The notes under the pieces are model-generated. The model was given only the letters and a program-made list of their open reading frames with translations, was not told where the DNA came from and made no database searches. Made by a program: the position numbers and the translations under genes. A stretch of DNA of 52,579 bases from Thiobacillaceae bacterium (GTDB lineage: Bacteria > Pseudomonadota > Gammaproteobacteria > Burkholderiales > Thiobacillaceae): the NCBI GenBank assembly GCA_041736375.1, contig JBGSTQ010000423.1, forward strand, positions 1-52,579, given 5' to 3'. Positions 146 through 44,561 of the stretch are shown piece after piece. How positions within the stretch are numbered: position 1 is the stretch's first letter; every line of letters begins with the position of its first letter.

Positions 146-278
146 GGTTCACTGCTCAGCCACTTGCAAAGGCCCTCGAAATGGAAAACCGGTTTCGGAA
201 GTAGAAAACAGATTCCAGAACATTGATTCGGACTGGCTCGCTCCACTGCTTGCCTCGCATAAAAATCACATAGCCGTT

Positions 279-860
279 TGATTTAATTAAATTAAATTCC
301 CCGTAAACGGGGGCATTTGAGGGGTCTGACGTCCGCCTGTAAACGGGGACATTTCACAGGGCTTCAGATATTTGGAGCCATCATGCGAATCATCTGGGTG
401 TCACCGCCAAAATGCCCGGTCATGCCAGTACCCATGCGGGATTACGCCGGTATCTCCTGCCAGCATTCACTCCTCGCCTCGGATGCGCGATCAACAGCTT
501 TCCGCGACGGAATGAGGGCGGCCGCCGGGACCAGTCCGGCGCGCTCCCGTAAACAGGGACATCTCGACTTGCGCGCCCCTGTAAACAGGGACAACTCATC
601 CCGTGACCGGGGACATCTCATCCTGTAGATCGGGGCAAGTCGTCCTGTAGACAGGGGCATTTCAGGAAATTACCCACAAGCATAGCCACCGGGCGAATCG
701 ACCTTGTGAAGTTGTTCCTTTTGCAGTCGGTTACGCGCATTTACGCGGGTTGATGGCGATTCGAGAGGTGGCTTTGTAGCTGGGCTTGCCTGGCTCGAAT
801 CGACCTGGAGATTTCGTCCTAAACCTATTAAACCTATTAAACCTTTTAAACAACAACACG
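279..860. other. Putative plasmid-type replication origin (oriV)
   Basis: Iterons, a DnaA-box-like TTACCCACA (670-678), AT-rich 9-mers TAAACCTAT/TAAACCTAT/TAAACCTTT/TAAACAACA (820-855) and an AT palindrome ATTTAATTAAAT (281-292). Confidence 0.75.
300..663 (+). repeat. Iteron array: seven ~20-bp repeats, consensus CCYGTAAACRGGGRCAWYTC
   Basis: Copies at 300, 336, 546, 578, 600, 622 and 644; the last four have an exact 22-bp period. Confidence 0.85.
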
Positions 861-1240
861 CGCGAGCGAGCGCCAGGGACAGGAGGAAGCACAGGGTTGT
901 TGTCTTCAGAAATCCGAAATCGAACACCGAAGGACTCCATGACGCATGGCTGGGCGATCGTGAATCTTGTCGCCACGGAGATTATTGGTTGCTTATCGCT
1001 GGAGGTGTTACCGGCGGTGTAAATCCGTAGAAATTTGGCGGCAGATATTGGCGGCGTGGCCTGCCTGCCTGCCAGGCTTTCAAGGGCTACGGCGGCTATT
1101 TGCCGAAAGCACTCATCCTGGTCGATGTTCCCAAAGCTGTCCAAGGACTGTGTGGCTATTCCACGCAATTCGGCCGCATGTGACTGCCGTTCCGGCAATT
1201 GGGGACAGTAGTCGCATCAATCGATGCAGAATAGGTAGCT

Positions 1241-2014
1241 TCAACCCGCCCGGCGTTTCTGAATCAGGTCATAGGCGAGCTGAATTTCCTTGGTCTTCTC
1301 GGTGGCCATGGCGATCATGTCGTCAGGCAGGCCTTGCCCGGTCAACTTGTCAGGGTGGTACTGGCTCATTAGCTTGCGGTAGGCGCGCTTGATTTCGTTG
1401 TCGGTGTTTTCAGGGGTGACACCCAGGGCTTTATAGGCATCTTCGAGCGCGTTTTCGCTGTTGGGCGTCCCTGCTGCAAAGTGGCCCTGGTTGAGCACCA
1501 TGTCCATGAGGTGGCGGTAAGAGGCGGAGTCGTAGCCAAGACGGGCGGCAACGTCAGCGAGCAGAGCATCCTCGGTGGGGTGGAGATGGCTGTCGGCCAG
1601 AGCCAGCGTGATCAGGAATGAGACCAGCACTTCGCGCAGGCTACGTGTGTGTCCACAGACGGACATGAAGCGATCGCAAATGGCGGCCAGATCGGTGTCC
1701 AGGTCAACGCCACGCTTGAACAGGGCTATAGCCTGGGTGCGGTGTTCCTGGCTCATGCCGAGTTGCCTGATCAGTTCCTCGGTGTGTGCGATCTCAGCCT
1801 TGGATACCCGGCCATCGGCCTTGGCCAGGCGCCCGGCTGCAATAAACAGCGTTTCCAGAAAAACCGTCTGGCGCAGGGCGTTTTGCAGGGGGTTGACGCC
1901 GCCAGTGCCGTATTTGCGGACACGGTCGACGAACCAGCCTGCAACGAATCCGAGGAGGGCGCCGGTAACACCAGCGAAGTAGTAGCCCGCAATCAGGCCG
2001 ATGATCTTAAACAC
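1241..2014 (-). CDS. djlA: DjlA-like co-chaperone (N-terminal TM, TerB-like domain, C-terminal J domain)
   Basis: Hydrophobic Gly-rich N terminus; AKADGRVS..EI TerB-like motif; AYKALGV...IKRAYRKLMSQYHPDKL J-domain with HPD. Confidence 0.9.
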   Translation of the reverse strand: MFKIIGLIAGYYFAGVTGALLGFVAGWFVDRVRKYGTGGVNPLQNALRQTVFLETLFIAAGRLAKADGRVSKAEIAHTEELIRQLGMSQEHRTQAIALFKRGVDLDTDLAAICDRFMSVCGHTRSLREVLVSFLITLALADSHLHPTEDALLADVAARLGYDSASYRHLMDMVLNQGHFAAGTPNSENALEDAYKALGVTPENTDNEIKRAYRKLMSQYHPDKLTGQGLPDDMIAMATEKTKEIQLAYDLIQKRRAG

Positions 2015-2235
2015 ACATGCTCCTGTTTCGATGGCGTCCAGGTTGGGGCTGGACAGGAAGTTCTGATGCTAGCTTGGAACCTAGCTGATAAGGGTTTGCC
2101 AATCACCTGCTGCTTTGGGAGCGCACGCTGGCCGCGTTCTATCGACCACAGCTGCCGCACACCGTTTCCACAAAGCCGCCATCTGAGCGACCGCTGTACT
2201 TCGAGACCTGCCGTAGAGCCAATTCACACTGCTCG

Positions 2236-4222
2236 GTAGAGTCGAGATGTGGCGCGGTAGCGGTAGGTTTGGTTTGTCTGTTGCCGCCCCTTTCGTCTGG
2301 CGGTGCCCAAGTAACCTTGCCATGACCCCGTTTCCACACCCCGCTCATCGAACCGGACATGCAGATTTCCCGCATCCGGCTCTCGGACAAGACATCACAC
2401 CTTCGCACACGCCCGGCTGTGTTTGTACTTAGCTAAACAGATGAGCCCGAAGTACCCATAAAGGTGCGGGAAGGGAAAGACCCCGCCCTTGCGCCGTCGA
2501 ACTTTGTACTTGTTACGCAGCCACCGACGCAACCGCGTCGCCGTGTAGCGGTCGAGCGTTTCATATGCACGGCTGACGCTCCCTACACTGAAGTAGTTTG
2601 CCCAGCCGCGCAGCATCCGGTTCAACCGCTCCACCAGCTCCGTGGTTTCTTGCCACGCCGTTTTCAGTTCGGTCAGCGCATGGACCTTTTCGACCATGCG
2701 CCGGATACTTTTCTTCGACGGCCACAGGGCGGTACGTGCTTTCCCTGTGACTGGCGAATACCGCCTGCCAAACGTGTATCCCAGAAAGTCGAACGTGCCT
2801 TCCGGTACCTTGCAGATGCGTGTTTTCTCCTCGTTCACCGTCAGCTTCAGCTTGCCCATGATCTCGCGCATTCGCTGCAGGGCTTCTTCCGCCTTGCCGT
2901 GCTTGCACAGGATCACGAGGTCGTCGGCATAGGTGACGATGCGACTGCCAAGGCTTCGCTCCAGGCCGAGTTTCTTCCACGCCAGCACAAACCGCCGCAT
3001 ATACAGATTCGATAGCAGCGGTGAGATCGGCGAGCCTTGCGGGATGCCGCGTCCGCTGTCCTTGGCCTCGGTCGTGCGTGTCTTGCGGCCTTGCTGATCA
3101 GTTTCTTCGACTGCGCATTCCAACCACATCTTGATCAGATGCAGCACACGCCGGTCCACGATGCGCCGCGCGAGCGACAGCATCAGTTCGGTGTGTGGAA
3201 TGCTGCCGAAGTAATCGGCAAGGTCGGCGTCTACGACGTCCGTTTGGCCTCGGTGCAGACGTTCTTCCACCTCCACGGCCGCCTGCTGGGCATTGCGGCC
3301 CGGCCGGTAGGCGTACTGTTCAGGGGGAAGGTCGGCTTCGAAGATCGGTTCGAGCACGAGCATCGCTGCTGTCATACACACCCGATCCCGCAGGGTTGAG
3401 ATTCCCAGTGGCCGTAGCTTGCCATTGGCTTTCGGGATGAACACTCTCCGGATCGGGTCCGGTCGGTAGCTCTCCTCTTTGAGGGCTTGCGCCAGTTCGC
3501 CCAACCATCGCTGCACCCCATACGCTTCAACCTCGGCAAAGTCCTGGCCATCCACGCCCGGTGCGCCCTTGTTGGAGCGGCACTGGGCATAGGCATGGGC
3601 CAGGATGTCTTCCCGGTAGATCTTGTCGTACAGGGCGTAGAAGCGATAGCCGGCTTCGGACTTCGCTTTCGTGTGTAACGCCATCTGTAGTTTCTGAACA
3701 CTGAACGGAGTTGATAGGTTGCCCAATCTCCACGTCCCTCTCTACGTCTTGCGCTGGTCTTGAACTGAGGCCCCTTCCCTCCACCGGCATTACCCGGCTT
3801 CCCAGGTACTACGGGCCTCTCCGCCACCCCAAAGGCGTCCAGCCTGTCCGTCACCGGCGTCTGGTTGGTCTTCCCGGACCACGCCAAGGGGCTTCCCGTG
3901 TTGCGCGCGCTTCCCTTGTGTACATGCTGTCGCCACTACCCCGGTGCAGCGTCTGCGGTTCCTACTTTGCTCATTTCCGCAGCCGTATCAGCCTTCCCCA
4001 GTAAGGCTGCTGGGTCGGCCTGCACGATGGCATTTCGAGGTTTGCTCAGCGTTCACTCGCGTTACGGCCTGCACACTCGCGCTGTCACCACATTTTGTGA
4101 CTCGCTAGCCGAAGGCTTCAGCCACTTCGTTACCTCCATGACTGCTCCGGTTACTTCCGGCTGGAGCATTTCGCCGGGTGGGGCTTGCACCCACTGGGAA
4201 GCGCCGCCTTTGCACGGCGCAC
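2236..4222 (-). mobile_element. Group II intron (~1.99 kb), full length
   Basis: 5' end GTGCGCCGTGC at 4222 (minus); domain V GAGCCGGATGCGGGAAATCTGCATGTCCGGTTC at 2350-2382; domain VI ending ...CTCGACTCTAC at 2236; internal RT ORF. Confidence 0.9.
2395..3726 (-). CDS. ltrA: Group II intron reverse transcriptase/maturase (no HNH endonuclease domain)
   Basis: [46 protein letters not shown] and RGWANYF motifs. Confidence 0.95.
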
Positions 4223-4457
4223 GCCAATCCTGCCGTCGGAGCTGACTGGGCGTATGACTGGTGTTATGCGGGTTGCTGTCGTTGATGCCCAGGGAGCGGT
4301 GAACGTCAGCTTCCTCATACGGCGAACTCGCCCTTCCGCTTGATGCTGCCGGTTGGATCCGTGGAAGCACCAGTAGCGGAGGGCACCCTTTGGCGGGCAG
4401 TCCTTTGCTCGCCTCTGGGGGGCTGCGCTCTTCAGGCGAGCGGTAAGGCTGATTACA

Positions 4458-5732
4458 ATGGAAATAAACAACTACAAGGGTAGGCACATGTTTGGCAGCA
4501 TCGATAAGAGCAAGGGTTTGCTGTTCGTCACTTACGATCTCGATCACTCTATACGTCTAACGATGGAGAAGATGCGGCAGGAGGTCGAAGGACTCGATGA
4601 AAACCGGCTGCTCAATACGCCGCCGGAAGACTTGAAGTTCTATCTGGTCGAGAAGTTCGGCATTACGCCAATCACCCTTCTGCTCGATCAGTGGTATGCC
4701 GATCATCAGGACGCTCAGGTTGATGTCAGGCACGATCGCATGCGCTGGATCGAGGACCGCAGCCGCCCGGCCATAGTGGCGGGCGAACGCGTTGAAGTGC
4801 GTATCCCCTTCGAGGGCGAGTCGGAGCTGTTCTATACGAAGGCCAACACCTTCAACATGAACCCGCCTCGCGCTGTCATAGAGAAGAACGAGATCGTCCT
4901 GCGCTACGACACGCCCGCAGACCAGCCCCGCGATATCCGGCCCTTGGTCGATCAGACTCTGCGGGACATTGAGGAGCATCTGGGGTGGCAGCGCGACATG
5001 ATCGACACGCACAACCGGAACCTTCCGGGCGCAGCGGAACAGGCGATCCGCCAGCGGCGCGAATGCCTGCTGGCGCAGTCGCAACGTGCGGAATCACTCG
5101 GCATCCCAATCCGGCGGCGCACCGATGCGCCCAAGACCTACGCGCTTCCCACTGTGAAGCGAAAGATCGTCCCGACCTTGCCGCCTGCGTCAACGGCGCA
5201 GTTCAAGCCGGAACCGGTACTCACCATGGATCTGTACGAGCACATCCTCAAGGTCGTACAGGACATGGCGCTCGTGATGGAGCGCAGCCCTGACGCTTTC
5301 AAGGCCATGAACGAGGAAGCCCTGCGGCAGCACTTCCTCGTGCAGCTCAACGGACAGTTCGAGGGCAAGGCGACGGGCGAGACGTTCAACATGGCAGGCA
5401 AGACCGACATCCTGCTACGCGAAGGCGACCGCAATGTCTTCATCGCCGAGTGCAAGTTCTGGAAGGGGCCGAAGGCGTTCGGCGAAGCCATCGACCAGCT
5501 CCTCGGCTACGCGACCTGGCGAGATAGCAAGACCGCGATCATCGTCTTCAACCGGAACACCGAGACCTCAACGGTCTTGAGCGGCATCGCTAACGTTGCC
5601 AAGGTACATGCGAACTTCAAACGCGCCATTGACTGGCCGCATGAAAGCGGCCTCAGGTATGTCATGCACAGCAACGGGGACAAGTACCGCGAACTGATCC
5701 TGACCGTCCTCGTGTTCCACGTGCCGCAGTGA
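4458..5732 (+). CDS. Hypothetical protein with C-terminal PD-(D/E)XK-like nuclease motif; candidate defence gene
   Basis: 424-aa ORF; GKTDILL...VFIAECKFW...QLLGY resembles a restriction-endonuclease-fold active site. The start could be 4488. Confidence 0.6.
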   Translation: MEINNYKGRHMFGSIDKSKGLLFVTYDLDHSIRLTMEKMRQEVEGLDENRLLNTPPEDLKFYLVEKFGITPITLLLDQWYADHQDAQVDVRHDRMRWIEDRSRPAIVAGERVEVRIPFEGESELFYTKANTFNMNPPRAVIEKNEIVLRYDTPADQPRDIRPLVDQTLRDIEEHLGWQRDMIDTHNRNLPGAAEQAIRQRRECLLAQSQRAESLGIPIRRRTDAPKTYALPTVKRKIVPTLPPASTAQFKPEPVLTMDLYEHILKVVQDMALVMERSPDAFKAMNEEALRQHFLVQLNGQFEGKATGETFNMAGKTDILLREGDRNVFIAECKFWKGPKAFGEAIDQLLGYATWRDSKTAIIVFNRNTETSTVLSGIANVAKVHANFKRAIDWPHESGLRYVMHSNGDKYRELILTVLVFHVPQ

Positions 5733-5915
5733 TGCAAATCCAGACTTCAAAGATTGTTCAAAAAGCGGCCTTTGGCTGATCGGTCCAGACCGTATGACCG
5801 CTTACGGCGGCGTGTGACCAACCGCCGCTAGGAACCAAAGGCGGTCGGCAGCGAAAGACAACAACCCCGCAACGGCCGTGGGAAAATCTGCGCACCAAGT
5901 GAGCCAGGTGAGCGA

Positions 5916-8360
5916 ATGACCGATCAGCAGACCCGGAACAACCACTACGTCCCGCAATGGTATCAGCGCGGCTTCCTCGCGCCCGGTCAGTCTCGCCTCT
6001 TCCATCTCAACCTGAACCCGGATCGCGCGACGCTGCCTGACGGCCGGCAAGTGACGCATCGTGCGCTTCAAGAGAAGGCTACGAAACAGTGCTTCGTCGA
6101 GTACGACCTATACACCACACATTTCGGTCAGATCATCAACGACGACGTGGAGAAATACTTGTTTGGTGCCATCGACGACCAGGGGGCGAGAGCAGTCCGC
6201 GCCTTTGCACTCGGGAACCACGCCGACGTACACGCGGCGTTCCAGGACTTCTTCGAGCACATGGCAGCGCAAAAGCTGCGCACGCCCAAGGGCCTGGATT
6301 GGATCCGCTCGTGTTACGGCTCGCTGAGCCAAGTCGACCTGATGGTCGAGATGCAGGCTCTACGCCTAATGCATTGCACCATGTGGGTTGAGGGCGTGCG
6401 GGAGATCGTTTCGGCGCAGGACTCGGACGTGAAGTTCATCCTGACGGACCACCCGGTGACGGTCTACAACGCGGCGGTGGATCCCATGTCCGAGCAGTGC
6501 GCCTACCCGCAGGATCCACTTGTAGCGGCCCTGGGCTCTCAGACTGTGTTCGCGCTGGATGCCAACACCTGCCTGATCCTCACTCACCTGGAATATACCA
6601 AGGAGCCGGATCAACTAGACCTGACGCGGCTGCGCACGAACGCCCGGCACCTGGGCGTGGGCATGACGCGCACCGACAACTTCATCCGAGACCGGATACT
6701 GAGCCGGGACGAGGTGGTCGCGATCAACCACCTGCTCAAGTCGCGGGCGAAGCGCTACATCGCAGCCGCCGACAAGGCCTGGCTCTACCCGGAGCGGGAG
6801 TTCAACGGGTCATGGGCGCAGATAGCCAAGGTGCTGCGGCCTAGGGACGATTTGTGGCGCTTCGGCGGGGAGATCTACGTCGGCTACAAGGATGGAACCT
6901 CTGGCTATTGGGACGAGCATGGCCGCACGTCCAAGGCCCACGAGTTCCTGACCCGCAAGTCCCCCCGCAAAAACATCGGGGCCAACGACTTCTGCGGCTG
7001 CGGCAGTGCCTACACGTTCAAGGACTGCTGCCAGCGGCTGCCCACCGCAGAGCGTCCGTCGTGGGAGGTCTACGGCCTGCGCGAGCGCAACCTGATGTTC
7101 TGCAACGCCGTTCAAGGCATCTTGGGCCTGTCTGACGGAGCGTCCTGGGAGGACGTGCGCCGCAACCTTAGCGACGAGCACGTCAAGCGGATCCATCGCG
7201 CATTTGCGAGCTTGTGGCCCGATGACACCGATCTGGCCTCCCTGCTACCGCGGCCCAACCCGAAAGTCCTGCGCTCGGTCTACATGGGCTTCAGCGATCC
7301 TCGCACCGTCGAGGCGACGGTGCTGGGCTGGCTGCCGTTTGTCGATGAGATCGTGCTCGTGAACCCATTCTTCCTGGGCACGCGCATGAAGCCCGAGTTC
7401 AGCCCCATCGAGTCGCCCACCGGCCACAAGATGCAGACGCTCAAGAACGTCATGCTGCTCCTGGTGCTGGAGCCGTTTATCCGCGCCGGCCTCGTGCATC
7501 TGGTGCCCGATCCCGGTGAGGTCAGTGCCCCGCTCGGCCATCATGTCCGGGAAGTGCTCACGCGGCGCACCGACGGATGGAAGCCCCCTAAGGGCGGCGG
7601 CCTGCACCGCTTCCTGAAACTCGCGGAAGAGGAAACACAGCGCGTCGTCTGGATGCTGCCAGAGGCCTCCCAGCGGCGCATCATCGCCGAGCACATGCCA
7701 GACGCCGACGCCGTGATGACGGATCGCCTCATCGCGTATTTCAAGCGCCAGGCTGAGGCCGATCCCTACACGCTGCTGCAGCCGCTTCCTGTGGGCAAGG
7801 ACGGTGCGCAGAACCAGATCTTCAAGGGGCTGAGCTTGGAAGCGGCGCTGTATCTGGCATCGCTGACTGGCTCGATCATCCACGTCGACACGGAGGCGCA
7901 CTGGGCGCAGCTCCTGAAGGACGCTCAGCCTGCTGGCGCGCCGTCGCAGCGCACGTGGGCGCCCGTGCGACAAGCCTTGAGCGAGATATCGTTCCCGGTG
8001 GAACTCAACTCGCAGCGAGTGGCGGAACGCATCGCTAGCGGCGACCGTCTGCCGATCCGGTCGTTACTGCGGCGGCTGGCGCAATCGGTCTCGGCCCCGG
8101 ACGACGGGGCCGCTCCCACCGAGCTGGCCAAGCATGTGCGCCAAGCGCGCGGCAGGGTCGAGCGTGCATGGAAACGCGCAGACAACAGCACCCTGCTCCC
8201 CACAAGCCTCGAGCTGCACGTGCCGCCGACGGGGTTTGCCCGTCATGAGGTACAGCGGCTGCTTGTGATGTTTGCCGGCGTTACCAGGCCTCAGCCCATT
8301 CCGTACGCGCTGCGCTTGGTGTTCGACGAACCGGAGGATGACAGCGGAAATACTTCCTAA
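5916..8360 (+). CDS. DUF4238-like protein with internal SEC-C-type Cys motif; candidate defence gene
   Basis: N-terminal NHYVPQWYQRGF and FILTDHPV are typical of DUF4238; NDFCGCGSAYTFKDCC matches the SEC-C pattern. Confidence 0.7.
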   Translation: MTDQQTRNNHYVPQWYQRGFLAPGQSRLFHLNLNPDRATLPDGRQVTHRALQEKATKQCFVEYDLYTTHFGQIINDDVEKYLFGAIDDQGARAVRAFALGNHADVHAAFQDFFEHMAAQKLRTPKGLDWIRSCYGSLSQVDLMVEMQALRLMHCTMWVEGVREIVSAQDSDVKFILTDHPVTVYNAAVDPMSEQCAYPQDPLVAALGSQTVFALDANTCLILTHLEYTKEPDQLDLTRLRTNARHLGVGMTRTDNFIRDRILSRDEVVAINHLLKSRAKRYIAAADKAWLYPEREFNGSWAQIAKVLRPRDDLWRFGGEIYVGYKDGTSGYWDEHGRTSKAHEFLTRKSPRKNIGANDFCGCGSAYTFKDCCQRLPTAERPSWEVYGLRERNLMFCNAVQGILGLSDGASWEDVRRNLSDEHVKRIHRAFASLWPDDTDLASLLPRPNPKVLRSVYMGFSDPRTVEATVLGWLPFVDEIVLVNPFFLGTRMKPEFSPIESPTGHKMQTLKNVMLLLVLEPFIRAGLVHLVPDPGEVSAPLGHHVREVLTRRTDGWKPPKGGGLHRFLKLAEEETQRVVWMLPEASQRRIIAEHMPDADAVMTDRLIAYFKRQAEADPYTLLQPLPVGKDGAQNQIFKGLSLEAALYLASLTGSIIHVDTEAHWAQLLKDAQPAGAPSQRTWAPVRQALSEISFPVELNSQRVAERIASGDRLPIRSLLRRLAQSVSAPDDGAAPTELAKHVRQARGRVERAWKRADNSTLLPTSLELHVPPTGFARHEVQRLLVMFAGVTRPQPIPYALRLVFDEPEDDSGNTS

Positions 8361-8476
8361 CAGAACGATGCAGCTGGAGGAATCATCTGTTCACACGCCG
8401 TGTCGCGTCGCTAAAGTCTGCAACCTGTTCAACACCGGCCACTCAGCCGAACTATCCCCACTGGCAGCAAAGGCCG

Positions 8477-8634
8477 GATTGTGTTGAAAAAGTCCCGACA
8501 AACGATTTTGAGCGTTTTACAGGGGTCATCTACCCCTTGCCCGGCCAGGGATCGTCGATTGTGGGGCATTCTGAGAGGTCAACTTTCCACGATTGCAGCC
8601 ACCTGCGCTGGAAGTCGACTTTTTCAACACAATC
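8477..8634. mobile_element. 158-bp MITE with perfect 18-bp terminal inverted repeats and 4-bp target duplication
   Basis: GATTGTGTTGAAAAAGTC (8477-8494) and GACTTTTTCAACACAATC (8617-8634), flanked by GCCG on both sides (8473-8476, 8635-8638). The ends resemble IS1182/IS5-type termini. Confidence 0.85.
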
Positions 8635-8937
8635 GCCGAGGATCCGGCATTGGGTAGTTGGTTCGTAAGGCTTCTCGACTCTGACAGCTGACGTTCAGAG
8701 CCGGGCCAATCCGTGCCAGCCCATGACAACTCCCGCTGCATAGTAAAAGTTCAAATCAACAAAATCAGTGGTGTCGATGCAATAGCCGCTATGGAGAAGC
8801 GGCACAAAGACAACTGTCGGCGCACTGCGCCTCCGTCAGGCGCTCAATGCCAGATTTCTGAAGAATATTATTGCCGTTAAAGGGAGGACATGAGCAGCCA
8901 GGACTTACCGTGCCTCGCGGCTGGCAGAAGAACTCGA

Positions 8938-10395
8938 TCAGATGTCGAGCGTGCCCAGGTAGATCAGAAACTCGGCCTTGGCCCAGGGGTGCGCCAGCCC
9001 GCCTCGCTTGAAAATGTCCACGATGTTCTGCTTGTGCTTGGATGCGGACAGCCAGGCCAGGAACTTCACCAATGCCTCTTGGCGTCCCTCCTCGTGCAAC
9101 GACTCGAAGTACGCCCACAACGACTGGTTCCTTGTCATCTCCGCCTGGGCCTTGTCGCGGCGCTGTGCTTCCAGCTTCTCCCTGGAGGCATGCCTGGCTC
9201 TGGCTTCCTCTTCACGTTTCACATCGTGCTGGCTCCGCCTGATTGCCGCACCCTCCTTCAAAGCCACGAGGAAATAGGGGCCGATGTCCTTCACCTTGCC
9301 GGCGCGGTAGCGGGACAACACGTATTCCATTGCGCCCTGGATGGCGGTTTCCGGGAATTCACCGCACACACGAGCCGCAACCCTGGCCGAGAGGCAGAAC
9401 TCTTGTTGCAGGCGAGTCATGATCGGATTCGGCTCATCGAGGGGCCTATCGCCAGCCTGGGCGATATTTACTGGTTCAGGCAGACCCTTGCCCTCATCAG
9501 ATCCATTTGACGCAAGCACAGGCGTCTTATCGCTTTCTGCAACGGCATCCGGAACAGACTCGGATGATGGATGAACAGGTTCAAAGGAATCCGCCATTCC
9601 TATCGGGGGTTCGATCTGCATGTTCTGCTGGGGATTAGGCTCGATCAAGAATCGGATTTCCGCGACTCGGCGTGCCTGTCTTTTCACCTGAGTGGTAATG
9701 AGCAGATCTGTAATCGCGTTGACCTCACGGAGTGCGGGCTGGATCACCCGCTCGTTCAGCTTCCGGTAGTCCTCGTAGTACGGATCACTTGCGCCCAAAA
9801 GCGCCCTGAGCGCATCGACCGGGAATGAAGGGGTCTGCCCAAGCCTGCGAAAGCGTGCGCAGTTTTCGTACAACGCCAAGGCATAGCAGGAATGGAAGCG
9901 GCGCACGATGTCGATATCGAGCAGGACGTAAAACTGGGGGTTGAACAGCTTCACCCGGAGATGGGGGCTGTATGCGTAGGTGCAGACACCATCAATGATG
10001 TCCGCGCTGGCCAGCAACGTGGAAACACCCCATTCCCGCTTGCCGGCGTCGTTCAGTATGTCCCACTCGATGACCGTGCTCGTGAGGGCCTTCAGCAGCG
10101 TCTTGATGCGAGCGACATCGTGACTGTCATAGCCGATCAGATCCACAAGCTGTCTGACCGGTATTCGATGGATTGTGATGCTTGGGTTCGGCAGCTCGTA
10201 GTAGGCGTTGAGCAGGAGCGCGTTGATCAGCTTGCGTTGAACCAGGGTGATGTTGTTGGTGATGTGGACAGCCTCGACGCATTTCCTGACCTGGCGAGTC
10301 CGGGATTTTCTTGCAGGCTTGGTCTTTCGCCCCGGCTTCTCTGGATGTTTCCCGCCAGGCTGGCTGGCGTCTTTGGTCACAGCGGTTTCTCCCAT
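8938..10395 (-). CDS. Plasmid replication initiator, Rep_3 (RepA/RepB winged-helix) family
   Basis: ITLVQRKLINALL, YALALYE..ARFR, LRALLG...Y...NERVIQPALREVN...KRQARRVAEIRF are Rep_3 hallmarks. Confidence 0.88.
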   Translation of the reverse strand: MGETAVTKDASQPGGKHPEKPGRKTKPARKSRTRQVRKCVEAVHITNNITLVQRKLINALLLNAYYELPNPSITIHRIPVRQLVDLIGYDSHDVARIKTLLKALTSTVIEWDILNDAGKREWGVSTLLASADIIDGVCTYAYSPHLRVKLFNPQFYVLLDIDIVRRFHSCYALALYENCARFRRLGQTPSFPVDALRALLGASDPYYEDYRKLNERVIQPALREVNAITDLLITTQVKRQARRVAEIRFLIEPNPQQNMQIEPPIGMADSFEPVHPSSESVPDAVAESDKTPVLASNGSDEGKGLPEPVNIAQAGDRPLDEPNPIMTRLQQEFCLSARVAARVCGEFPETAIQGAMEYVLSRYRAGKVKDIGPYFLVALKEGAAIRRSQHDVKREEEARARHASREKLEAQRRDKAQAEMTRNQSLWAYFESLHEEGRQEALVKFLAWLSASKHKQNIVDIFKRGGLAHPWAKAEFLIYLGTLDI

Positions 10396-16109: not shown

Positions 16110-17051
16110 ATGAGCATCAACGTGCAGGAATTCATCGAGAAGGTCAACGTCGTCGCGGTCGACGCCGCCGTGTATTCGGGGAAGGTCTCGCGCGACCTGG
16201 CGGATGATCCCGAGGTCTTTACTTCTGGGTCGTTGAAAGTGATCGACCCCGTCTTGCTGAGACCATTCACGGCTTACAAGCAAGCGGCAATGCGGGCCTG
16301 TCGCAATACGGGCGTGGGATTCCTGAACGGCTTCGCCGTGCCGGACTCCCAGGTTGAGCCACTACTTCGGGTGTTGTCGCAGGTCGCCACGAAGTTCGAG
16401 CAGGCACGAACGGATTTCCTGTCGAAGTACCTGGCAGCCGTTGAGGACTGGGCCAATGCCCATCCCTCCCAGGCTTCGGAAATCCGCGCCAAGGCGCAGA
16501 CCCTGTCCTACGTGGAAAAGGCGCTGCGCTTCGGCATCGGTGTCTTCAAGGTGCAGCCCCAGGCCATCCCGGTCAGTCTCTCGGTCCCGGATGCAATCGG
16601 CCATGAGGTGGGCGGCATCGTGGGGCAACTTGCCCACGAGGTTGCCCAGGATGTCCGGGACACCTGGAGCCCGAAGGCAGATGGCGTGACCCAGAAAATC
16701 CGGGGCCTGCTAAACCGGGTTTCCGAGAAATGCCACAGCCTGGCCTTTCTGGATGGCAAGGTTGGCCGCATCGCTCACTTCGTGGACGAGATCGCCGTGG
16801 CGTTGCCCACCAACGGCAGGATCGTTGGCCGGGACTTCCTGATGCTGTCCGGGCTGATGGAAATCCTGTCCGATCCCGGCAGGCTCCTGGCTGAGTTAAA
16901 GCTGGAGATCATCCTGGCGGAAGAGCCTTCGGCCGAAACGGACGAGGTCGAGCTGGCAGTCGACGGTGAAGAACATCTCGTCGAACCCTGCATGTCGCCA
17001 GTTCCACCCGTCGTCGCGCCGGTCGTCGGCCGCAATGCCTACGCCTGGTAA
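16110..17051 (+). CDS. DUF3150-like protein of ICE/plasmid backbones
   Basis: SGSLKVIDP..L.PF..YK..A.R.C...GVGFLNGFAVP and LAFLD motifs; AAGGAG RBS. Confidence 0.7.
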   Translation: MSINVQEFIEKVNVVAVDAAVYSGKVSRDLADDPEVFTSGSLKVIDPVLLRPFTAYKQAAMRACRNTGVGFLNGFAVPDSQVEPLLRVLSQVATKFEQARTDFLSKYLAAVEDWANAHPSQASEIRAKAQTLSYVEKALRFGIGVFKVQPQAIPVSLSVPDAIGHEVGGIVGQLAHEVAQDVRDTWSPKADGVTQKIRGLLNRVSEKCHSLAFLDGKVGRIAHFVDEIAVALPTNGRIVGRDFLMLSGLMEILSDPGRLLAELKLEIILAEEPSAETDEVELAVDGEEHLVEPCMSPVPPVVAPVVGRNAYAW

Positions 17052-17079
17052 GCATGGCGCTTGTGCAGTTGCTTCACCC

Positions 17080-17114
17080 AACCCCGCTCGGTCTCTGACC
17101 TGGCGGGGTTTTTT
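17080..17114 (+). terminator. Intrinsic terminator-like hairpin, repeat copy 2
   Basis: AACCCCGCTCGGTCTCTGACCTGGCGGGGTTTTTT, near-identical to copy 1. Confidence 0.7.
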
Positions 17115-17199
17115 ATGGGCAGCCAATCGAGCATATGTACCCACACGTCCAGCAGGTAGCATTGCAACAATACGCATTATAACTTTTAGGGATGACACA

Positions 17200-18576
17200 T
17201 TGGAAAACGCGTCAGAAAGAAACGCACTTTTCATCTCTCATGCAACGCCGGAAGACAACGCGTTCGTGCGCTGGCTGGGGGCTAAGCTGACTGCGCTTGG
17301 GTACGAGGTATGGGCCGATGTCATGCGACTGCGTGGCGGTTCAGATTGGTCCAGGGAGCTTGAGGATGCACTTCGCCAGCGAGCCGCAAAAGTCCTGGTC
17401 GTCTGCACACCGCTAGGGCTGAATAAGCAGGGTGTTCGCAACGAAATCGAGATGGCATCGAACATCGCAAACAAGCTCGGCGACAAGGAATTCATCATCC
17501 CCCTTCGTCTCGAAAACTATGAGGCTCCTTTCCGGATCGCACATGTTCAGTATGTTGATTTCAAAAGAAGCTGGAGCCAGGGATTTATCGAACTGGCTGA
17601 GCTTTTAGTGCAATTCCCTGCCCTTCGCAAGGAACCCAACCGCTCAACCGAGGCATGGCTTGAGGGACAGCGCTCAGGGGCCGCCAGGCTCGTCAACAGG
17701 AAGGAATGGCTCTCGTCGAACTGGCTTCAGGTCACAGGGCTTCCTGGAAAGGTTTTCTATTGCGAACCTCCGGTAGGTTTCCAGCTAGAAAAATTACAGC
17801 ACCGCTCCTTCCATACCTGGCCAGTAGTTCCATTTCGCGGTGGTGTTCTAACCTTTGCTGAGCCTGACGCTGATGGTTTCCTTGGACAAGACCTGCCGGC
17901 CAAGACTATTGCAGCAATTGAGACCGGTTCATTCATTGACCATGGATGGGCTGAAATGGACATTCTTGGGTACGAAGCGAGAAGATTGTTCGCCGATCTC
18001 GGAAACCAGGCCTTTGAAGCCTTTCTTCACAAAAAAGGGCTTTCATTTTCAGAAAGCAGCATCAAGCATAGATGGTGGTATGGCGGTATCAAAACTGCCC
18101 CTCTGACTATGATTCCGTTCGACTGGGAGCACCAAAAGGGGCGGCGGCAGATTGTCGGCAAATCAGATAAACGAGGGATATTCTGGCACTACGCCATCAG
18201 CGGTCAGGTTCGAACCTCGCCAGTGCGTCATGTGCGTATCTCGGCCAGTCTGATCTTTTCCGACAACGGGATGGACGCCATGAACGATCACCGCAAGGCT
18301 CACCGTTTACGGAGATCATTTGCCAAGACATGGAGGAATGCGAGATGGCGGGACATGATGCTCGCCTTCCTATCCTGGATCTCTTCGGGTAAGGACGAAT
18401 TGATCATTCCCGTATCGAGTGGACGGTTTATTTACCTTGCCCTTCCTCCAGCAAGCTTCTTGTCACCGGTGACCGTGCTCCATGATGGTGAGGAACCACC
18501 TGACGAAGATGACCCCGACTTCGATGAGTCCGATTTAGACGATTACCCGGACTTTGATGAAGGGAGTGCTGAATGA
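17200..18576 (+). CDS. TIR-APAZ NADase effector of a SPARTA system
   Basis: LFISHATPEDNAFVRWL...GYEVWAD...GVRNEI (TIR with catalytic Glu), then an APAZ region (LSSNW, RRSFAKTWRNARWRDMMLAF) and an acidic tail. TTG start with AGGGA RBS inferred. Confidence 0.9.
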   Translation: MENASERNALFISHATPEDNAFVRWLGAKLTALGYEVWADVMRLRGGSDWSRELEDALRQRAAKVLVVCTPLGLNKQGVRNEIEMASNIANKLGDKEFIIPLRLENYEAPFRIAHVQYVDFKRSWSQGFIELAELLVQFPALRKEPNRSTEAWLEGQRSGAARLVNRKEWLSSNWLQVTGLPGKVFYCEPPVGFQLEKLQHRSFHTWPVVPFRGGVLTFAEPDADGFLGQDLPAKTIAAIETGSFIDHGWAEMDILGYEARRLFADLGNQAFEAFLHKKGLSFSESSIKHRWWYGGIKTAPLTMIPFDWEHQKGRRQIVGKSDKRGIFWHYAISGQVRTSPVRHVRISASLIFSDNGMDAMNDHRKAHRLRRSFAKTWRNARWRDMMLAFLSWISSGKDELIIPVSSGRFIYLALPPASFLSPVTVLHDGEEPPDEDDPDFDESDLDDYPDFDEGSAE

Positions 18577-20126
18577 GGACAGAACCCCGACTGATTCATG
18601 TCGCGGAGCCACGGCTTGAATTCCGTTTTGGTCAGAAAACAGAATACCCGCGCGACGGTCTCTACTTGTTTGGCCCGGTTGATGCAGGAGATGCTCCTCG
18701 ACAAATTCGCTACGGCTTCATCGGGACGACCGACTCACTTCGTCGTTTCAGCGCATGGGCCGACCAAGTGTCACATTACATTGAGGTCCCTGCTCCCGGC
18801 CGAATGTCGAAGGCAACCTCCCCCCAACATGTCCCCTTCCCTGGTTTCAGCGAGGCCTTCAATTCTCTCTGGTCGAACAAGCCGGCACGAACCATCACCG
18901 ATATCGATGGGAAGGAACTGCGCAAGTTGATCTGCATCGACAACCGCCATGAGGCAATCAAAGCTGTAGTGGACGTATTTGTCGATCGTCTCGTAGCCGA
19001 CCAGAAGCGATCAGAAGATCCCCCTGCGTTCTGGTACGTGGTGATCCCCGACTTCATTTTTGACATGGGGCGTCCCAACTCAACTGTCGCGATTGGGGAG
19101 CGAGTGAGGGGGTCGGTCAGGATCAGTGAAAAGAAGGCAGCAAACCTGGTGATACAGCCAACACTCTTTGGGATCGCTGAGCGGGAGGCCGAAGTCTACA
19201 AATATGCCAAGAACTTCCGGCGACAACTGAAAGCCAGGCTCCTGGATCACCAGATCGTGACTCAGATCGTACGTGAATCAACTCTTACCCCTGATGACTT
19301 TCTCAAAGCCAACGGGAGGGATCCAAAGCGACGCGTCGAGGATCCAGCAACCATCGCCTGGAAGCTCTGCACGGGCTCCTACTACAAGAGCGGTGGTCGT
19401 CCGTGGCAACTTGGCGACATGCGGGCAGGCGTTTGCTACGTGGGCTTGGTCTACAAGAAACAGCCTGAATCCGCCGATCCCCGCTACGCCTGCTGCGCTG
19501 CCCAGATGTTTCTATCCGATGGCGAGGGTGTGGTGTTTCGTGGTGCGCTTGGCCCGTGGTTTCATCCTGATCGACGGGAGTTCCACCTAGATAGAGCATC
19601 AGCTCGACGTCTCATTGAGACTGTTCTCGGGGAGTACCGAATCAAACATCAGGCTGACCCGGTGGAATTGTTTATCCACGCGAAGGCTTCATTCAGTGAC
19701 GATGAATGGGCTGGCTTCATGGAAGCCGCAACTGACCACACCTCCAATGTGGTCGGGGTGCAAATCTCGGATGCTTGGGATCAGCTGAAGCTCTTCCGCC
19801 CGGGTGCATACCCAGTTGTTCGAGGAACCGCGCTGATTACCAGCCCTCGTTCTGGATTCCTGTGGACTTCCGGATACGTTTCACGCTTGGATACCTACAT
19901 GGGACCTGAGACGCCCAATCCACTAAAGGTATCAGTTCGTCGAGGGGATGCCGACATTAAAAATGTCATGTCAGACATCCTCTCCCTATCGAAGATCAAC
20001 TTCAACACTTGTCTTTTCAATGACAGGGAACCGGTGACCATCAAGTTCGCTGACGCCATCGGTGACATCCTCACTGCTGCGCCGGTGCATTCAGAACCCA
20101 AGTTGCCATTCAAGTTCTACATATGA
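18573..20126 (+). CDS. Short prokaryotic Argonaute (MID-PIWI) of a SPARTA system
   Basis: EPRLEF..GQK...PRDGLYLFGP, QLKARLL...TQIVRE, PWQL...RAGVCYVGLVYK, CCAAQMFL, ETPNPL, C-terminal PFKFYI; ATGA overlap with TIR-APAZ. Confidence 0.93.
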   Translation: MRTEPRLIHVAEPRLEFRFGQKTEYPRDGLYLFGPVDAGDAPRQIRYGFIGTTDSLRRFSAWADQVSHYIEVPAPGRMSKATSPQHVPFPGFSEAFNSLWSNKPARTITDIDGKELRKLICIDNRHEAIKAVVDVFVDRLVADQKRSEDPPAFWYVVIPDFIFDMGRPNSTVAIGERVRGSVRISEKKAANLVIQPTLFGIAEREAEVYKYAKNFRRQLKARLLDHQIVTQIVRESTLTPDDFLKANGRDPKRRVEDPATIAWKLCTGSYYKSGGRPWQLGDMRAGVCYVGLVYKKQPESADPRYACCAAQMFLSDGEGVVFRGALGPWFHPDRREFHLDRASARRLIETVLGEYRIKHQADPVELFIHAKASFSDDEWAGFMEAATDHTSNVVGVQISDAWDQLKLFRPGAYPVVRGTALITSPRSGFLWTSGYVSRLDTYMGPETPNPLKVSVRRGDADIKNVMSDILSLSKINFNTCLFNDREPVTIKFADAIGDILTAAPVHSEPKLPFKFYI

Positions 20127-22022: not shown

Positions 22023-23135
22023 TTATTTGAGTATCAGTAGATCGGGCGCGAGCAACTCGATCTCTATGGGTAACACCCGTTCTTGATCTACCCCCCGAGA
22101 AGCACACAGAACAAGAAGCTCTCTGGCAATTTTCTCATCCTCCCCGCATGTTATTGGCATTTGGTTTTGGCCTGTTTTTCCCACTACAGAAACATAGGGA
22201 TGGTTCCGGCTCTGGTTTCTAAGCGAAGCGATCATCGGCTGATAAAGCGCACTCAAGCGGAGGCCCGGCACGGTTTTTTTGAGCCGCAGATAAATCTGAA
22301 TCCCGGCGGGGTCGAGATCTCCCCAAAACGCAATCCTGTCATGGGCAAGCAGCTCTTTCGCGCCAGGGCATGTCGCCCCGTCTCTTCTCAGGGTGATCGC
22401 GCTCGCGAACCGGTCTTCCACCATGCCGGCCAACTGATTTCCATAGTCTTCCTGAGACTTGCTCAGCCCAAAGCCGTACGTACACACAAAAGCACACTGA
22501 TGAATAGCATTCGTGGCCACGGCCATCTCGAAGGCAGCCGGGTTTTCAACCAGCACTACAGCATCCGGTGATTGGCATCCGGCTACGACAACGTAGAGCG
22601 GGTGGCCTTGAAACTGGTCGACGTGGATTCCAAACGCCCTGAGGGATGGGGATGCAAATTCGTCCAGGAGCTTCGATGAGCCCAAGAGGTATCGTGCACT
22701 GACCAAAAAACGATGCCGGCCGGTTTCACTGGCCTGGCTCTCACGCAGACTGATCAGCCCCTGGAGAATGAGCCACATATCTGATTCAGAAAATGCTGCC
22801 AGCTTTGCACTCAGTGGCGCCAAGGATTCTCGATCCTGTAGTTGAAGCTCGGATCGTTCCAGCACGGATATCCAGCGTTGCCGGTCAGTATCCTGGGGAA
22901 CCACTGGTAACGACCCGATAATCCTCACTTGCGCGAACGGTGCACCATCGGGCGATACACCCTCTATCCAGCGCTCCTTTGACAGTCGCCCCAAGGATTG
23001 TCGGATCGTCAAAGGAGATTCCCCAGTGTCCGTTGCCAGACCTTCAACCAACCCACCAGGGCGAAGGTATGCCTTCCCACTCATTTTCTTGATGAGCGCC
23101 GCGCGAATTCGCTCGACAGAATCCTCAAGCCCCAT
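22023..23135 (-). CDS. jetD: Wadjet JetD/MksG-like TOPRIM nuclease
   Basis: VVLVENPAAF (TOPRIM Glu), FWGDLDPAGIQI (DxD), C-terminal DQE; last gene of the SMC operon. Confidence 0.8.
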   Translation of the reverse strand: MGLEDSVERIRAALIKKMSGKAYLRPGGLVEGLATDTGESPLTIRQSLGRLSKERWIEGVSPDGAPFAQVRIIGSLPVVPQDTDRQRWISVLERSELQLQDRESLAPLSAKLAAFSESDMWLILQGLISLRESQASETGRHRFLVSARYLLGSSKLLDEFASPSLRAFGIHVDQFQGHPLYVVVAGCQSPDAVVLVENPAAFEMAVATNAIHQCAFVCTYGFGLSKSQEDYGNQLAGMVEDRFASAITLRRDGATCPGAKELLAHDRIAFWGDLDPAGIQIYLRLKKTVPGLRLSALYQPMIASLRNQSRNHPYVSVVGKTGQNQMPITCGEDEKIARELLVLCASRGVDQERVLPIEIELLAPDLLILK

Positions 23136-23137
23136 CG

Positions 23138-27685: not shown

Positions 27686-28481
27686 CTTCCGACTCCGTTT
27701 GTGATTGGCCCGTTATCAACTCAACGGATCGTCGTTCAAGAGTCACTGACGAGTCGGACGGCATGAGATAGGACAGTTCATGCTCAGCAATCACCGCCAT
27801 ATCCACAGCAGCCACAAGGGTCTGTCGGTACTCGCCAGGGTTGCCTGCGTCCTGGATCATGCCGGCCTCTTCCATAACCTTGAGAAAACGGCTTGCGTAG
27901 GCATGGAGGCTGTTCTTGTTCCCCCACAGAAGATCCCATGCCGTGCCTTCCATCCCTTCAGGGCGGCCCATATTGCCAAGCTGCTCGATGCCCTTGGAAA
28001 GTGAATCGACAAACAATTTCTCGGAGACCAAGGCCTCGCGGTAACGGCTGATTTCCGCCGGTAGCCGATCGATACGTTCGTAAAAGAACCACTGCAAGGT
28101 AAGCCACATCCTCGCCAGCCAGACTACTCGCTCAGCTTTGCTGGCGTTTCTACGTCTGCCATCACGGATTTGATCGAGCGTCCAATCGTTGTCCAGGTAG
28201 GGCGCCAAGGTTTCACCACGTAGCCTGGTCACGACATAGATCCGATTGTTTCGCCCCGCTTTCGGGGGAATACCGAACTCCAAGCCGTCCCGTATGTAGA
28301 GCGTGAACCCCTGAGCGGCCAGGAATTCATCCAGGTCTCGCAGTTCTGACTGACTACAGTCCGACAGGATTCGCGCCACCTCCAGTTCGTTTTCTCGTGG
28401 CGGCCGGTCGGGTGGGTTACCGTGTATTTCCCGGTGTTTGAGCAACAACCCGAAAACAAGCCCAAGGTCTGTTGGAGTCAT
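27663..28481 (-). CDS. Putative Wadjet JetB/MukE-like kite subunit
   Basis: Size and position overlapping the SMC start; winged-helix-like C terminus (FLKVMEEAGMI...GEYR). Confidence 0.6.
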   Translation of the reverse strand: MTPTDLGLVFGLLLKHREIHGNPPDRPPRENELEVARILSDCSQSELRDLDEFLAAQGFTLYIRDGLEFGIPPKAGRNNRIYVVTRLRGETLAPYLDNDWTLDQIRDGRRRNASKAERVVWLARMWLTLQWFFYERIDRLPAEISRYREALVSEKLFVDSLSKGIEQLGNMGRPEGMEGTAWDLLWGNKNSLHAYASRFLKVMEEAGMIQDAGNPGEYRQTLVAAVDMAVIAEHELSYLMPSDSSVTLERRSVELITGQSQTESEDADPAAH

Positions 28482-34246: not shown

Positions 34247-34255
34247 GTGGTTGTT

Positions 34256-36664: not shown

Positions 36665-36828
36665 CTCCCTTGTCTTGCCAGAAACAGCCCGCTTTTCAGA
36701 AGTGGGCAAATTTGCACATTATCAACGTTTATGAGCAGCCTAAACTCTGCGTCTCACCTGACTACAAGTCACCTTCGGACTTCTTCGAATAACAACGTAG
36801 TCTTGCCCAGCACCTCTCCTTCAAAGCC

Positions 36829-44532: not shown

Positions 44533-44561
44533 GGCTCTCTCCTTTGTTTCGGTCGTTTGGT

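Follow-up and report, generated by a model that had tools for sequence, protein, structure and literature searches.

The short repeats that lie between genes near the left end of the window (the whole 52,579-nucleotide stretch of a Thiobacillaceae genome analysed here) are, judging from comparisons between genomes, decayed two-arm sites of 30 or 31 bp that bound exchangeable gene modules. We consider it probable that such sites are recombined as double-stranded DNA, within a 6-bp spacer, by a 204-residue tyrosine recombinase acting in trans. Two of the sites carry an insertion in their spacer, one a group II intron and the other a miniature inverted-repeat element (MITE). The array copy here is a worn orphan rather than the working capture platform of the original prediction, because no recombinase gene was found in the array or in the genome.

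Each site consists of a 12-bp arm, a 6- or 7-bp spacer and an inverted 12-bp arm (12+6+12 or 12+7+12), and both arms share the consensus AANGNCNGC-TWT. Across 309 loci that were not chosen by the pattern, the spacing of arm pairs has maxima at 6 and 7 bp (13 pairs each; no other spacing exceeds 8), which matches the build of a tyrosine-recombinase core site (two inverted arms of 11–13 bp around a spacer of 6–8 bp). This spacing, together with the lack of a folding signal, upholds the earlier suggestion of two-arm recombinase sites distinct from attC. The type with a 7-bp spacer is present in 66 of 150 family genomes, and arms are concentrated in a few accessory regions of the genome.

The array spans positions 1088–8860, within a guaA-linked element, and contains three cargo genes (DjlA-like, PDC-S54 and DUF4238). 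Its left end is a full site at 1088–1117 (6-bp spacer 1100–1105; arm scores 5.9 and 8.2), followed by a full site with a 7-bp spacer at 1179–1209 (4.0 and 8.2). A single plus-strand arm at 2105–2116 (6.2) forms the start-side boundary of the DjlA-like gene, and a gene-less linker carries two worn, overlapping sites at 2130–2183 (2130–2159 and 2154–2183; right arms 2.8 and 8.3) and a full site at 2186–2215 (8.2 and 3.2; previously placed at 2184–2214). The left composite end, on the minus strand, comprises an outer site at 2221–4237, which is split by the intron (spacer 2233–2235 plus 4223–4225), and an inner site with a 7-bp spacer at 4253–4283 (7.1 and 7.2), the second best in the window on a matrix trained on intron flanks only. 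A site with one strong arm (4302–4330; arm 4302–4313, 10.9) lies upstream of the second cargo gene, and the stack between the second and third genes (5744–5849) holds arms at 5762–5773 (11.2) and 5793–5804 (10.6) and a weak site at 5820–5849 (4.1 and 5.1). On the plus strand, the right composite end comprises an inner site with a 7-bp spacer at 8413–8443, the best-scoring site in the window, and a MITE-split outer site at 8460–8651, where the match of relatives ends at the end of the spacer. Two worn sites follow at 8666–8751 (8666–8695, −0.6 and 10.4; 8722–8751, 2.6 and 4.6), and the right end of the array is formed by two single plus-strand arms at 8781–8857 (8781–8792, 8.6; 8846–8857, 9.7) that are recognized by matrix scores alone.

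All five sites listed in the original prediction are present within 3 bp of the coordinates given there, and both its inverted match of 20 out of 30 positions between the copies at 4254 and 8413 and its inverted 12-mer at 4300–4311 and 8686–8697 are exact. Its recurring pattern describes real sites but is loose, fitting one of the five exactly, three with at most one mismatch and four with at most two; the copy at 8724 needs more. Composite ends do flank the two plus-strand genes, as proposed, although the array reaches further left, to 1088, with a third cargo gene. The intron and the MITE had been overlooked and, because they split two further sites, had kept these hidden.

A 12-bp arm matrix trained on other genomes only (53 intron-flank and 24 MITE-flank arms) finds 11 arms scoring at least 8 in four gaps delimited by genes (1,374 bp in all), whereas dinucleotide shuffles average 1.46; none of 2,000 shuffles reaches 11, in line with the predicted enrichment, and the intergenic rate of the genome predicts 1.8 such arms. 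Three of these gaps came from the original prediction, and the fourth (921–1240) was added after matrix hits had been seen there. The intron-only matrix gives 11 arms versus 3.2 expected (none of 1,000 shuffles reaches this count) and only 4 in the eight other gaps of the window (3,075 bp). The same arm emerges from two independent target sets, 52 distinct intron 5′ exons and 25 MITE flanks: 18 of the 25 MITE flanks score at least 5 on the intron-only matrix at one offset, versus at most one at each of 27 other offsets. Single copies are weak, as at a low cut-off the matrix also matches coding DNA (19 hits in the window), and the individual copies at 2130, 5820 and 8722 may be chance matches.

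Evidence for exchange comes from where homology between genomes ends. The composite end, approximately 65 bp in length, consists of the inner site with its 7-bp spacer, a 16-bp linker, the outer arm and the spacer GGCCGA, and two such ends face outwards, in inverted orientation, on both sides of the block of PDC-S54 and DUF4238. Five versions of the right end (the window, G024, G220, G339 and G377) are alike as far as the last spacer base and diverge beyond it, and ten further copies of the composite end in five genomes lose homology past the spacer in the same way. In four of those five genomes an outward-facing pair of ends surrounds 1.2–9 kb of other cargo, and one of these pairs carries the same intron, inserted at the identical base. 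Two copies in G258 diverge at the opposite spacer edge. One contig of run X4 matches the window from 1095 rightwards and keeps the spacer with a different left arm; three contigs of X6 diverge at 2151, 3 bp from the spacer edge, and have another spacer. The three loose ends listed for public runs that are non-coding and outside the intron and MITE ends (1095, 2151 and 2227) all fall within sites; runs with small shares were left out. The breakpoints at the ends of PDC-S54 and DUF4238 are based on genomes and one read comparison, and the 15 joints listed for four runs, the contigs of which drop rare forms, include none produced by inversion or excision of the cargo block. In the synteny test that the original prediction proposed for its two cargo genes, the distance to a predicted spacer is 10 bp or less for three of only five gene ends that could be assessed, versus a background of 30% (p = 0.16). 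Across genomes and runs, the prediction that the sites bound exchangeable modules holds, and genome comparison points to modules bounded by inverted sites and exchanged at matching spacers, as in pdif modules.

Less decayed arrays occur elsewhere. In these fresh arrays, which were found with a pattern favouring their spacers, all six spacer bases are constant within a class and the three adjoining arm bases vary; one gene lies between each pair of sites, with no transposase. Among 80 P2-like gpD loci, one has an array and three more have a half site, these three being mutually identical over the stretch compared. The array of L249 has no match in plasmids, and the 7-bp site pattern has none in viral contigs.

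The first cargo gene (1241–2014, minus strand) encodes a DjlA-like co-chaperone with TerB and DnaJ domains (NF006948, above cut-off). A 96% identical copy occurs in a viral locus (L212), where the match ends at 2109 and the locus diverges inside the arm 2105–2116, with its own arm there; no match was found in plasmids. The second (4458–5732, plus strand; likely start near 4488) encodes the candidate defence protein PDC-S54 (PADLOC, E = 1.6 × 10−163) and has 80 related loci. Four homologous loci stop matching at 5757, within the predicted spacer 5756–5761, and L001, which has a site in the same place as 4302–4330, aligns from about there by eye and by blastn only from 4342. Most PDC-S54 homologues lack sites at their ends, which counts against our preferred explanation. 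The third (5916–8360, plus strand) encodes an 814-amino-acid DUF4238 protein (PF14022), with a reverse arm at 8341–8352 in its last codons. Its plasmid homologues stop matching at 8338 and 8348 and viral contigs gave no match; the start-side break, 47–49 bp from any predicted spacer, also speaks against our explanation. Elsewhere, the cargo between such sites is often not defence: the system is not defence-specific, and the idea that it loads defence genes is not borne out. Nor are the stacked copies just scars of lost cassettes: most of what they contain recurs in other genomes as conserved composite ends or linkers devoid of genes. The linker with the site 2186–2215 is 82–89% identical in G117, in G006 and twice in G258, with no match in 400 class genomes or viral contigs, and the right stack has no match in plasmids. 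The Rep gene of the carrier element (8938–10395, minus strand; PF01051) is a landmark for the position of the array: six related loci have 0.4–1.5 kb where the window has 8 kb. The only integrase in the window is an arm-binding P4-type enzyme, and a search of this contig for an attachment-site repeat of the guaA end found none.

Associations in relatives suggest that a 204-amino-acid tyrosine recombinase is the likely enzyme of the system. In three family genomes a composite end follows its gene, 73–77% identical over 74–79 bp to window positions 8401–8476, and the gene heads fresh arrays in G876 and G891. A site scoring at least 10 lies within 100 bp after the recombinase stop in 14 of 36 loci, versus 2 of 32 control windows and 0.67 in shuffles, and the R-K-H-R-H-Y residues are kept in 32–33 of 33 copies. 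Several observations count against this assignment: in 22 of the 36 loci the stop is not closely followed by a site scoring above 10, fresh viral arrays have no recombinase alongside, and the enzyme was not found in G424, the genome with the most copies (9). Moreover, the protein is nearly all catalytic domain and, because the usual core-binding domain is absent, binding of 12-bp arms is hard to account for. Co-occurrence is weak (the 7-bp site type is in 16 of 28 family genomes with the recombinase versus 50 of 122 without; p = 0.14). The co-occurring recombinase that was anticipated has a match in relatives, but none was found in the array or in this genome (G000; 91% complete), so the enzyme would have to act in trans. 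Short tyrosine-recombinase hits on two contigs of this genome (C180 and C331) are contig-edge fragments without site arrays, and protein clustering revealed no recurring recombinase near intron, MITE or PDC-S54 loci. The candidate has weak NCBIfam hits to FimB/FimE-type invertases, passing no NCBIfam cut-off. It resembles these and the simple tyrosine recombinases in its catalytic residues and small size; the latter, in the available text of PMC8138268, comprise a core-binding and a catalytic domain, unlike the candidate.

We hypothesize that the recombinase binds the arms, with the inner site serving as an accessory site and the outer site as the cut site and likely crossover. A module would be moved by two crossovers at spacer-matched sites, forming a co-integrate that is then resolved, as proposed for pdif modules; alternatively, it could be inverted. 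The allele here is probably locked in place, because both outer sites are interrupted.

The sites could instead be true recombination sites served by another enzyme (a resolvase-type serine recombinase, a host Xer-like protein or the integrase of the carrier), the small recombinase being merely another module. The weak co-occurrence at the genome level and the many orphan arrays would fit, and sub-sites of differing spacer length at fixed distances are reminiscent of res sites. We nevertheless regard this as unlikely: whole 6-bp spacers are kept and homology ends at their edges, the sites show no likeness to dif, and three of five site-rich genomes have no resolvase hit. In searches with our own small profiles, serine recombinases are not enriched (2 of 39 loci with sites versus 7 of 146 without), whereas tyrosine recombinases occur in 9 of 39 and 5 of 146, respectively.

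The intron (2236–4222, minus strand; 1,987 nucleotides; Rfam RF02003 and RF00029) lies inside the spacer of the left outer site. It has the GUGYG start, D1–D4 and D5–D6 folds, a reverse transcriptase/maturase (2395–3726, minus strand; TIGR04416) and EBS1–IBS1 pairing, with a four-nucleotide EBS1 at 4004–4007 (minus strand) placed by covariation; its ends are fixed by relatives. The left outer site is uninterrupted in four other loci, and the joint 2235–4223 is present in four of four public runs. The intron appears to pair with only four spacer bases and would read the arm through its own protein or a bound host protein. We rejected EBS2 as the source of the arm motif, as the best intron pairing with exon positions −7 to −16 reaches at most 79%, versus 98% for −1 to −4, and as MITE flanks carry the same arm. 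Six plasmid copies of the intron have no common neighbour. The 158-bp MITE (8477–8634), which has perfect 18-bp terminal inverted repeats and a 4-bp target duplication (8473–8476 and 8635–8638), sits inside the spacer of the right outer site, and two of four public runs have the MITE-free joint; samples of the run X5 type carry an allele free of both insertions. By the likeness of its ends and target, it is likely to be of IS1182 type: one IS1182-like element in L013 and two others in this genome, with similar but not identical ends, insert at the same position and duplicate the four spacer bases that the MITE duplicates. A transposase flanked by exactly the ends of the MITE was not found, and none of ten proteins tested is an autonomous partner.

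These insertions raise the possibility that introns and IS1182 elements are drawn to repeats that serve as binding sites or are simply dispersed, with genes exchanged by ordinary recombination between similar repeats or by transposition, and with no dedicated recombinase. The insertions are the best-documented events in the window, IS1182 copies of the same genome also sit in spacers, and no recombinase is nearby. Yet the shared stretches are approximately 65 bp at 70–80% identity, which is short for RecA, homology breaks off to the base at one edge of the spacer in 15 copies, and single genes lie between the site pairs of fresh arrays without a transposase. We therefore find this reading improbable.

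The sites could also be unusual attC sites of an integron-type array, recombined as folded single strands. This would account for single genes between repeats and for intron targeting like that of IIC-attC introns, and 8354–8375 may be an attC-like half, by resemblance. However, six stretches show no folding signal (z = −1.19 to +1.03 versus shuffles), the 30-bp sites occur in both orientations, no IntI-type gene is present in the window, and on the integron integrase model TIGR02249 the candidate enzyme reaches 23 bits, far short of the cut-off of 265; we give this reading very little credence. Hairpins of either attC or REP type were rejected, as the gaps fold no better than shuffles, and REP/REPIN elements would be abundant across the genome, not confined to clusters; no Rfam match was found in the gaps. 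Chance resemblance among GC-rich intergenic words, suggested by the many weak single copies and similar scores in coding DNA, is ruled out for the array as a whole by the shuffle tests and by units conserved in other genomes, and has a negligible probability.

By analogy, the sites work like pdif modules rather than attC or dif. We take the arm sequence to be unrelated to the dif consensus, and the arms are one self-similar motif rather than separate XerC and XerD arms. In the available text of PMC13141974, accessory genes in the dif modules of Acinetobacter plasmids are likewise surrounded by short double-stranded sites of two arms (pdif sites), which react when their spacers are identical or nearly so; there too, site classes alternate and the array lacks a recombinase. 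Unlike them, the system here has a likely mobile small recombinase and a spread far beyond Acinetobacter (with one mismatch allowed, it is found in 15 of 251 genomes of the phylum). With integrons and CALINs, as described in the consulted part of PMC7923331, it shares one-gene cassettes in rows, arrays that outlive their enzyme and an intron lineage with a 3–4-nucleotide EBS1 that homes to sites; it differs in sites without a hairpin or R-box consensus and a non-IntI enzyme, and its intron target has no upstream stem-loop.

In phage P2 (AF063097), fun(Z) lies between the two sites, at 15332 and 17429, that score highest in the whole genome with the intron-only matrix. Nilsson et al. reportedly described inverted repeats flanking this gene in 2004 and, because the two best P2 sites flank it, the sites here are probably those repeats. 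According to a sentence in a review (PMC8987985), the repeats enable site-specific exchange of fun(Z); that sentence mentions none of several features seen here, namely an ICE-like carrier, stacks of several sites, composite ends, a candidate enzyme and a pair of targeting elements. The literature searched held no description of the system. We lean slightly towards a broader view, in which this is a third, widespread cassette system alongside integrons and pdif modules, with a catalytic-domain-only tyrosine recombinase, 12–6–12 sites and composite ends of about 65 bp, across chromosomes, ICEs and phages, including the P2 fun(Z) hotspot. Its own parasites, a group II intron lineage pairing with four target bases and IS1182 elements, would home to the crossover spacer and freeze arrays.

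How defence genes are swapped at cos-adjacent P2/P4 hotspots is posed as an open question in the available text of PMC9122126. Because the system offers a named candidate enzyme, natural substrates and a defined site in which the crossover can be predicted, this question becomes directly testable for one hotspot class. Mobile cargo could be mined with the site matrix in the way that attC is used, and the intron is a natural example of targeting with 4 bp of RNA–DNA pairing and without a hairpin upstream. In the window, the system is represented by a worn copy without its enzyme.

The genome under study (2.78 Mb, 90.6% complete) carries on contig C28, the window, an integrative element that adjoins guaA. 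It encodes a P4-type integrase (43336-44601), a Rep protein (8938-10395), a TraD-like protein, type I restriction genes, and Wadjet-like and short-Argonaute genes. Rep and the shared terminal region are 8 kb apart in the window versus 0.4-1.5 kb in six related loci from five family genomes, and one contig of a public sequencing run (X3) lacks 864-8931 and has 206 other letters instead. Within this 8-kb insert lies the site array (1088 to about 8860), with a DjlA-like gene (1241-2014, minus strand), PDC-S54 (4458-5732, plus strand; PADLOC E 1.6e-163) and a gene for an 814-aa DUF4238 protein (5916-8360, plus strand) as cargo. A single DUF4238 protein of a P2 hotspot protects against T7 according to the accessible text of PMC9122126.

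The carrier element also holds a SPARTA-like pair (TIR-APAZ and short Argonaute; 16966-20126), a Wadjet-like four-gene block (22023-29881) and, at 31305-36709, type I restriction accompanied by a YhcG nuclease; no site stacks occur in the gaps of the latter two regions. Six 21-bp iteron-like direct repeats (299-663) near the terminal region are common to related elements, and in five of the latter (L201, L203, L204, L205 and L206) the stretch from rep to the terminal region contains DNA from inside rep (window 9387-9549) again, as a partial second copy. A viral contig (L212) encodes a DjlA-like protein gene 96% identical to that of the window, a housekeeping-type co-chaperone moving as cargo. 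Contig C204 of the same genome (L233) has a second site-rich accessory region (244-3400, 6122-6320 and 14185), with MITE relatives in spacers and cargo other than defence.

The original prediction described degenerate two-arm sites around the cargo genes; these are present in the sequence, and the two inverted matches it gave (20/30 and 12 bases) hold exactly. The motif was built from other genomes so that the test would not be circular. Among 82 loci with related group II introns, the 5′ end was obtained for 58, giving 52 distinct 5′ exons, which share an arm at -16 to -5 (G-13 in 44, C-11 in 47, G-9 in 41) and GG at -3 and -2; the 3′ exon begins with C in 44 of 47 distinct cases. A matrix from these flanks alone recovers the same arm beside MITE relatives (16 viral loci), where 18 of 25 flanks score at least 5 at offset 17 and at most one does so at each of 27 other offsets. 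With a joint intron and MITE matrix, four gaps of the window (1374 bp) contain 11 arms scoring at least 8, against 1.46 in shuffles (0/2000); the intron-only matrix gives 11 against 3.2 (0/1000 shuffles reach 11). In both counts, one of the four gaps was included only after matrix hits had been noticed there.

The resulting unit is a 12-bp arm (AANGNCNGC-TWT), a 6- or 7-bp spacer and the inverted arm. In 309 loci picked without the pattern, arm-pair spacing peaks at 6 and 7 bp (13 each, other spacings at most 8). Site scores reach 15 in the window and 30 in fresh copies elsewhere, and the window's site stretches fold into hairpins no better than shuffles do. Among the 5′ exons of the introns (L094-L173), 8 of 45 loci have another arm, directly oriented, 23 bp before the target arm.

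Two outward-facing copies of one composite end flank the PDC-S54 and DUF4238 block. In each, a linker of 15-16 bp joins an inner site with a 7-bp spacer (4253-4283 and 8413-8443) to an outer site whose spacer is GGCCGA. Both outer spacers are interrupted, the left by a group II intron that had been overlooked (Rfam RF02003 and RF00029; reverse transcriptase matching TIGR04416), the right by a 158-bp MITE (8477-8634) whose 18-bp inverted ends match perfectly and which is flanked by a 4-bp duplication. Intron-free alleles (joint 2235-4223) occur in all four runs, from four studies, and MITE-free alleles (joint 8472-8635) in two of the four. IS1182-like elements occupy the same spacer position in L013 and in contigs C326 and C398 of the genome under study. 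The DUF4238 stop region (8354-8375) appears to resemble the first half of an attC site and may be left over from a former integron stage.

Intron bases 216-219 pair with exon positions -1 to -4 in 98% of cells, with covariation, across 59 loci (three of four pair in the window intron); no comparable stretch pairs with the arm in these loci. Class IIC introns have an EBS1 of 3-4 bp and use an upstream stem-loop such as attC (accessible text of PMC7923331), and EBS2 is not needed for splicing in IIE and IIF introns (accessible text of PMC3753933). A stem-loop is absent upstream of the target here, and a protein therefore probably recognises the arm in duplex DNA.

Five versions of the right composite end correspond with one another as far as the last spacer base and diverge beyond it. 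At two mismatches, 66 of 150 family genomes contain the 7-bp site type (reversed control, 33). In five inspected contigs, of six with two close copies, the paired ends face outward around 1.2-9 kb of other genes in four and inward in one. The ten copies have the spacer GGCCGA in seven cases and one base off in two; all diverge after the spacer, and in one copy the same intron is inserted at the identical base. In L407 (G435:C274, 634-9593), paired composite ends of this type enclose a 9-kb block that includes genes for a TetR regulator and RND efflux. A gene-less linker (window 2174-2235) recurs in G117, G006 and twice in G258, where divergence falls at the opposite spacer edge. Among the run matches listed, three loose ends (1095, 2151 and 2227) fall in non-coding DNA away from the intron and MITE ends, each of them in a site, and eight others are in djlA and rep. 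On sequence comparison, breaks of non-coding units coincide sharply with sites.

For cargo genes, the expectation that homology ends at sites was borne out only in part: of the five ends that could be compared, three fall no more than 10 bp from a predicted spacer, a distance at which 30% of all positions in the gaps are found (P = 0.16). The break on the start side of DUF4238 is 47-49 bp from any such spacer. Five of 80 PDC-S54 loci have a common downstream stack and part at a spacer, three of them also upstream; most of the viewable loci have no sites, and PDC-S54 thus also travels by other routes. The 15 joints listed for runs include no inversion or excision joint.

The suggestion of a co-occurring recombinase finds partial support in relatives; the window's array contains no recombinase gene. 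Of 251 genomes examined in the phylum, 15 contain fresh sites matching a strict pattern (control, 0). In G876, the stop codon of a gene for a 204-aa tyrosine recombinase precedes an array by 22 bp, and in G891 a homologue of this gene has sites on either side. Residues R55, K83, H152, R155, H178 and Y187 are kept in 32-33 of 33 copies; the protein matches XerD over the catalytic domain only and is above no NCBIfam cut-off. Simple tyrosine recombinases have two domains (accessible text of PMC8138268). Of 150 family genomes, 28 have the gene; for the genus the figure is 13 of 44. A search of the 90.6% complete genome under study did not find it. A site scoring at least 10 lies within 100 bp after the stop of the gene in 14 of 36 loci, versus 2 of 32 controls; shuffles give 0.67 and at most 3. 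The unit at this position in G220, G339 and G377 shares 73-77% identity with the right end of the window's array. Against a strict link, 16 of 28 genomes that have the recombinase contain the 7-bp site type, and so do 50 of 122 that lack it (P = 0.14), and fresh viral arrays have no recombinase alongside.

Constant spacer bases are expected of a tyrosine recombinase overlap region. As expected, the six spacer bases in fresh viral arrays are kept within each class (6/7, 5/5 and 4/5) and the three adjoining arm bases vary, in loci found by a pattern that favours such spacers. Three viral contigs (L249, L242 and L238) have fresh arrays after gpD, a P2-like tail gene, with alternating spacer classes and 28-29 bp linkers; another (L239) has one-class arrays in direct orientation.

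In phage P2, the two best sites by the intron-only matrix (15332 and 17429) flank fun(Z), whose inverted repeats were reported in 2004 and permit the gene to be exchanged site-specifically (accessible text of PMC8987985); the site family is therefore probably already in print as a repeat, apparently without the enzyme or anatomy given here. The pdif modules described in the accessible text of PMC13141974 are alike in exchange logic but differ in their arms. A word search of the accessible text of PMC13586616 and PMC13552941 returned no mention of palindromic sites, and searches of openly accessible main texts found no description of the system.

We propose that a recombinase from a small mobile gene, supplied in trans, would bind the arms, with the inner site of the composite end assisting synapse assembly and strand exchange occurring across the outer 6-bp spacer. 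Two crossovers could then swap modules that have inverted ends, or such modules could be inverted. We regard this full mechanism, from trans-acting recombinase to module exchange at the sites, as fairly probable. The window allele is worn and enzyme-less, with both outer sites interrupted; the feature is real and is best read as an orphan array, now decayed, that belongs to a pdif-like system for module exchange outside the integrons.
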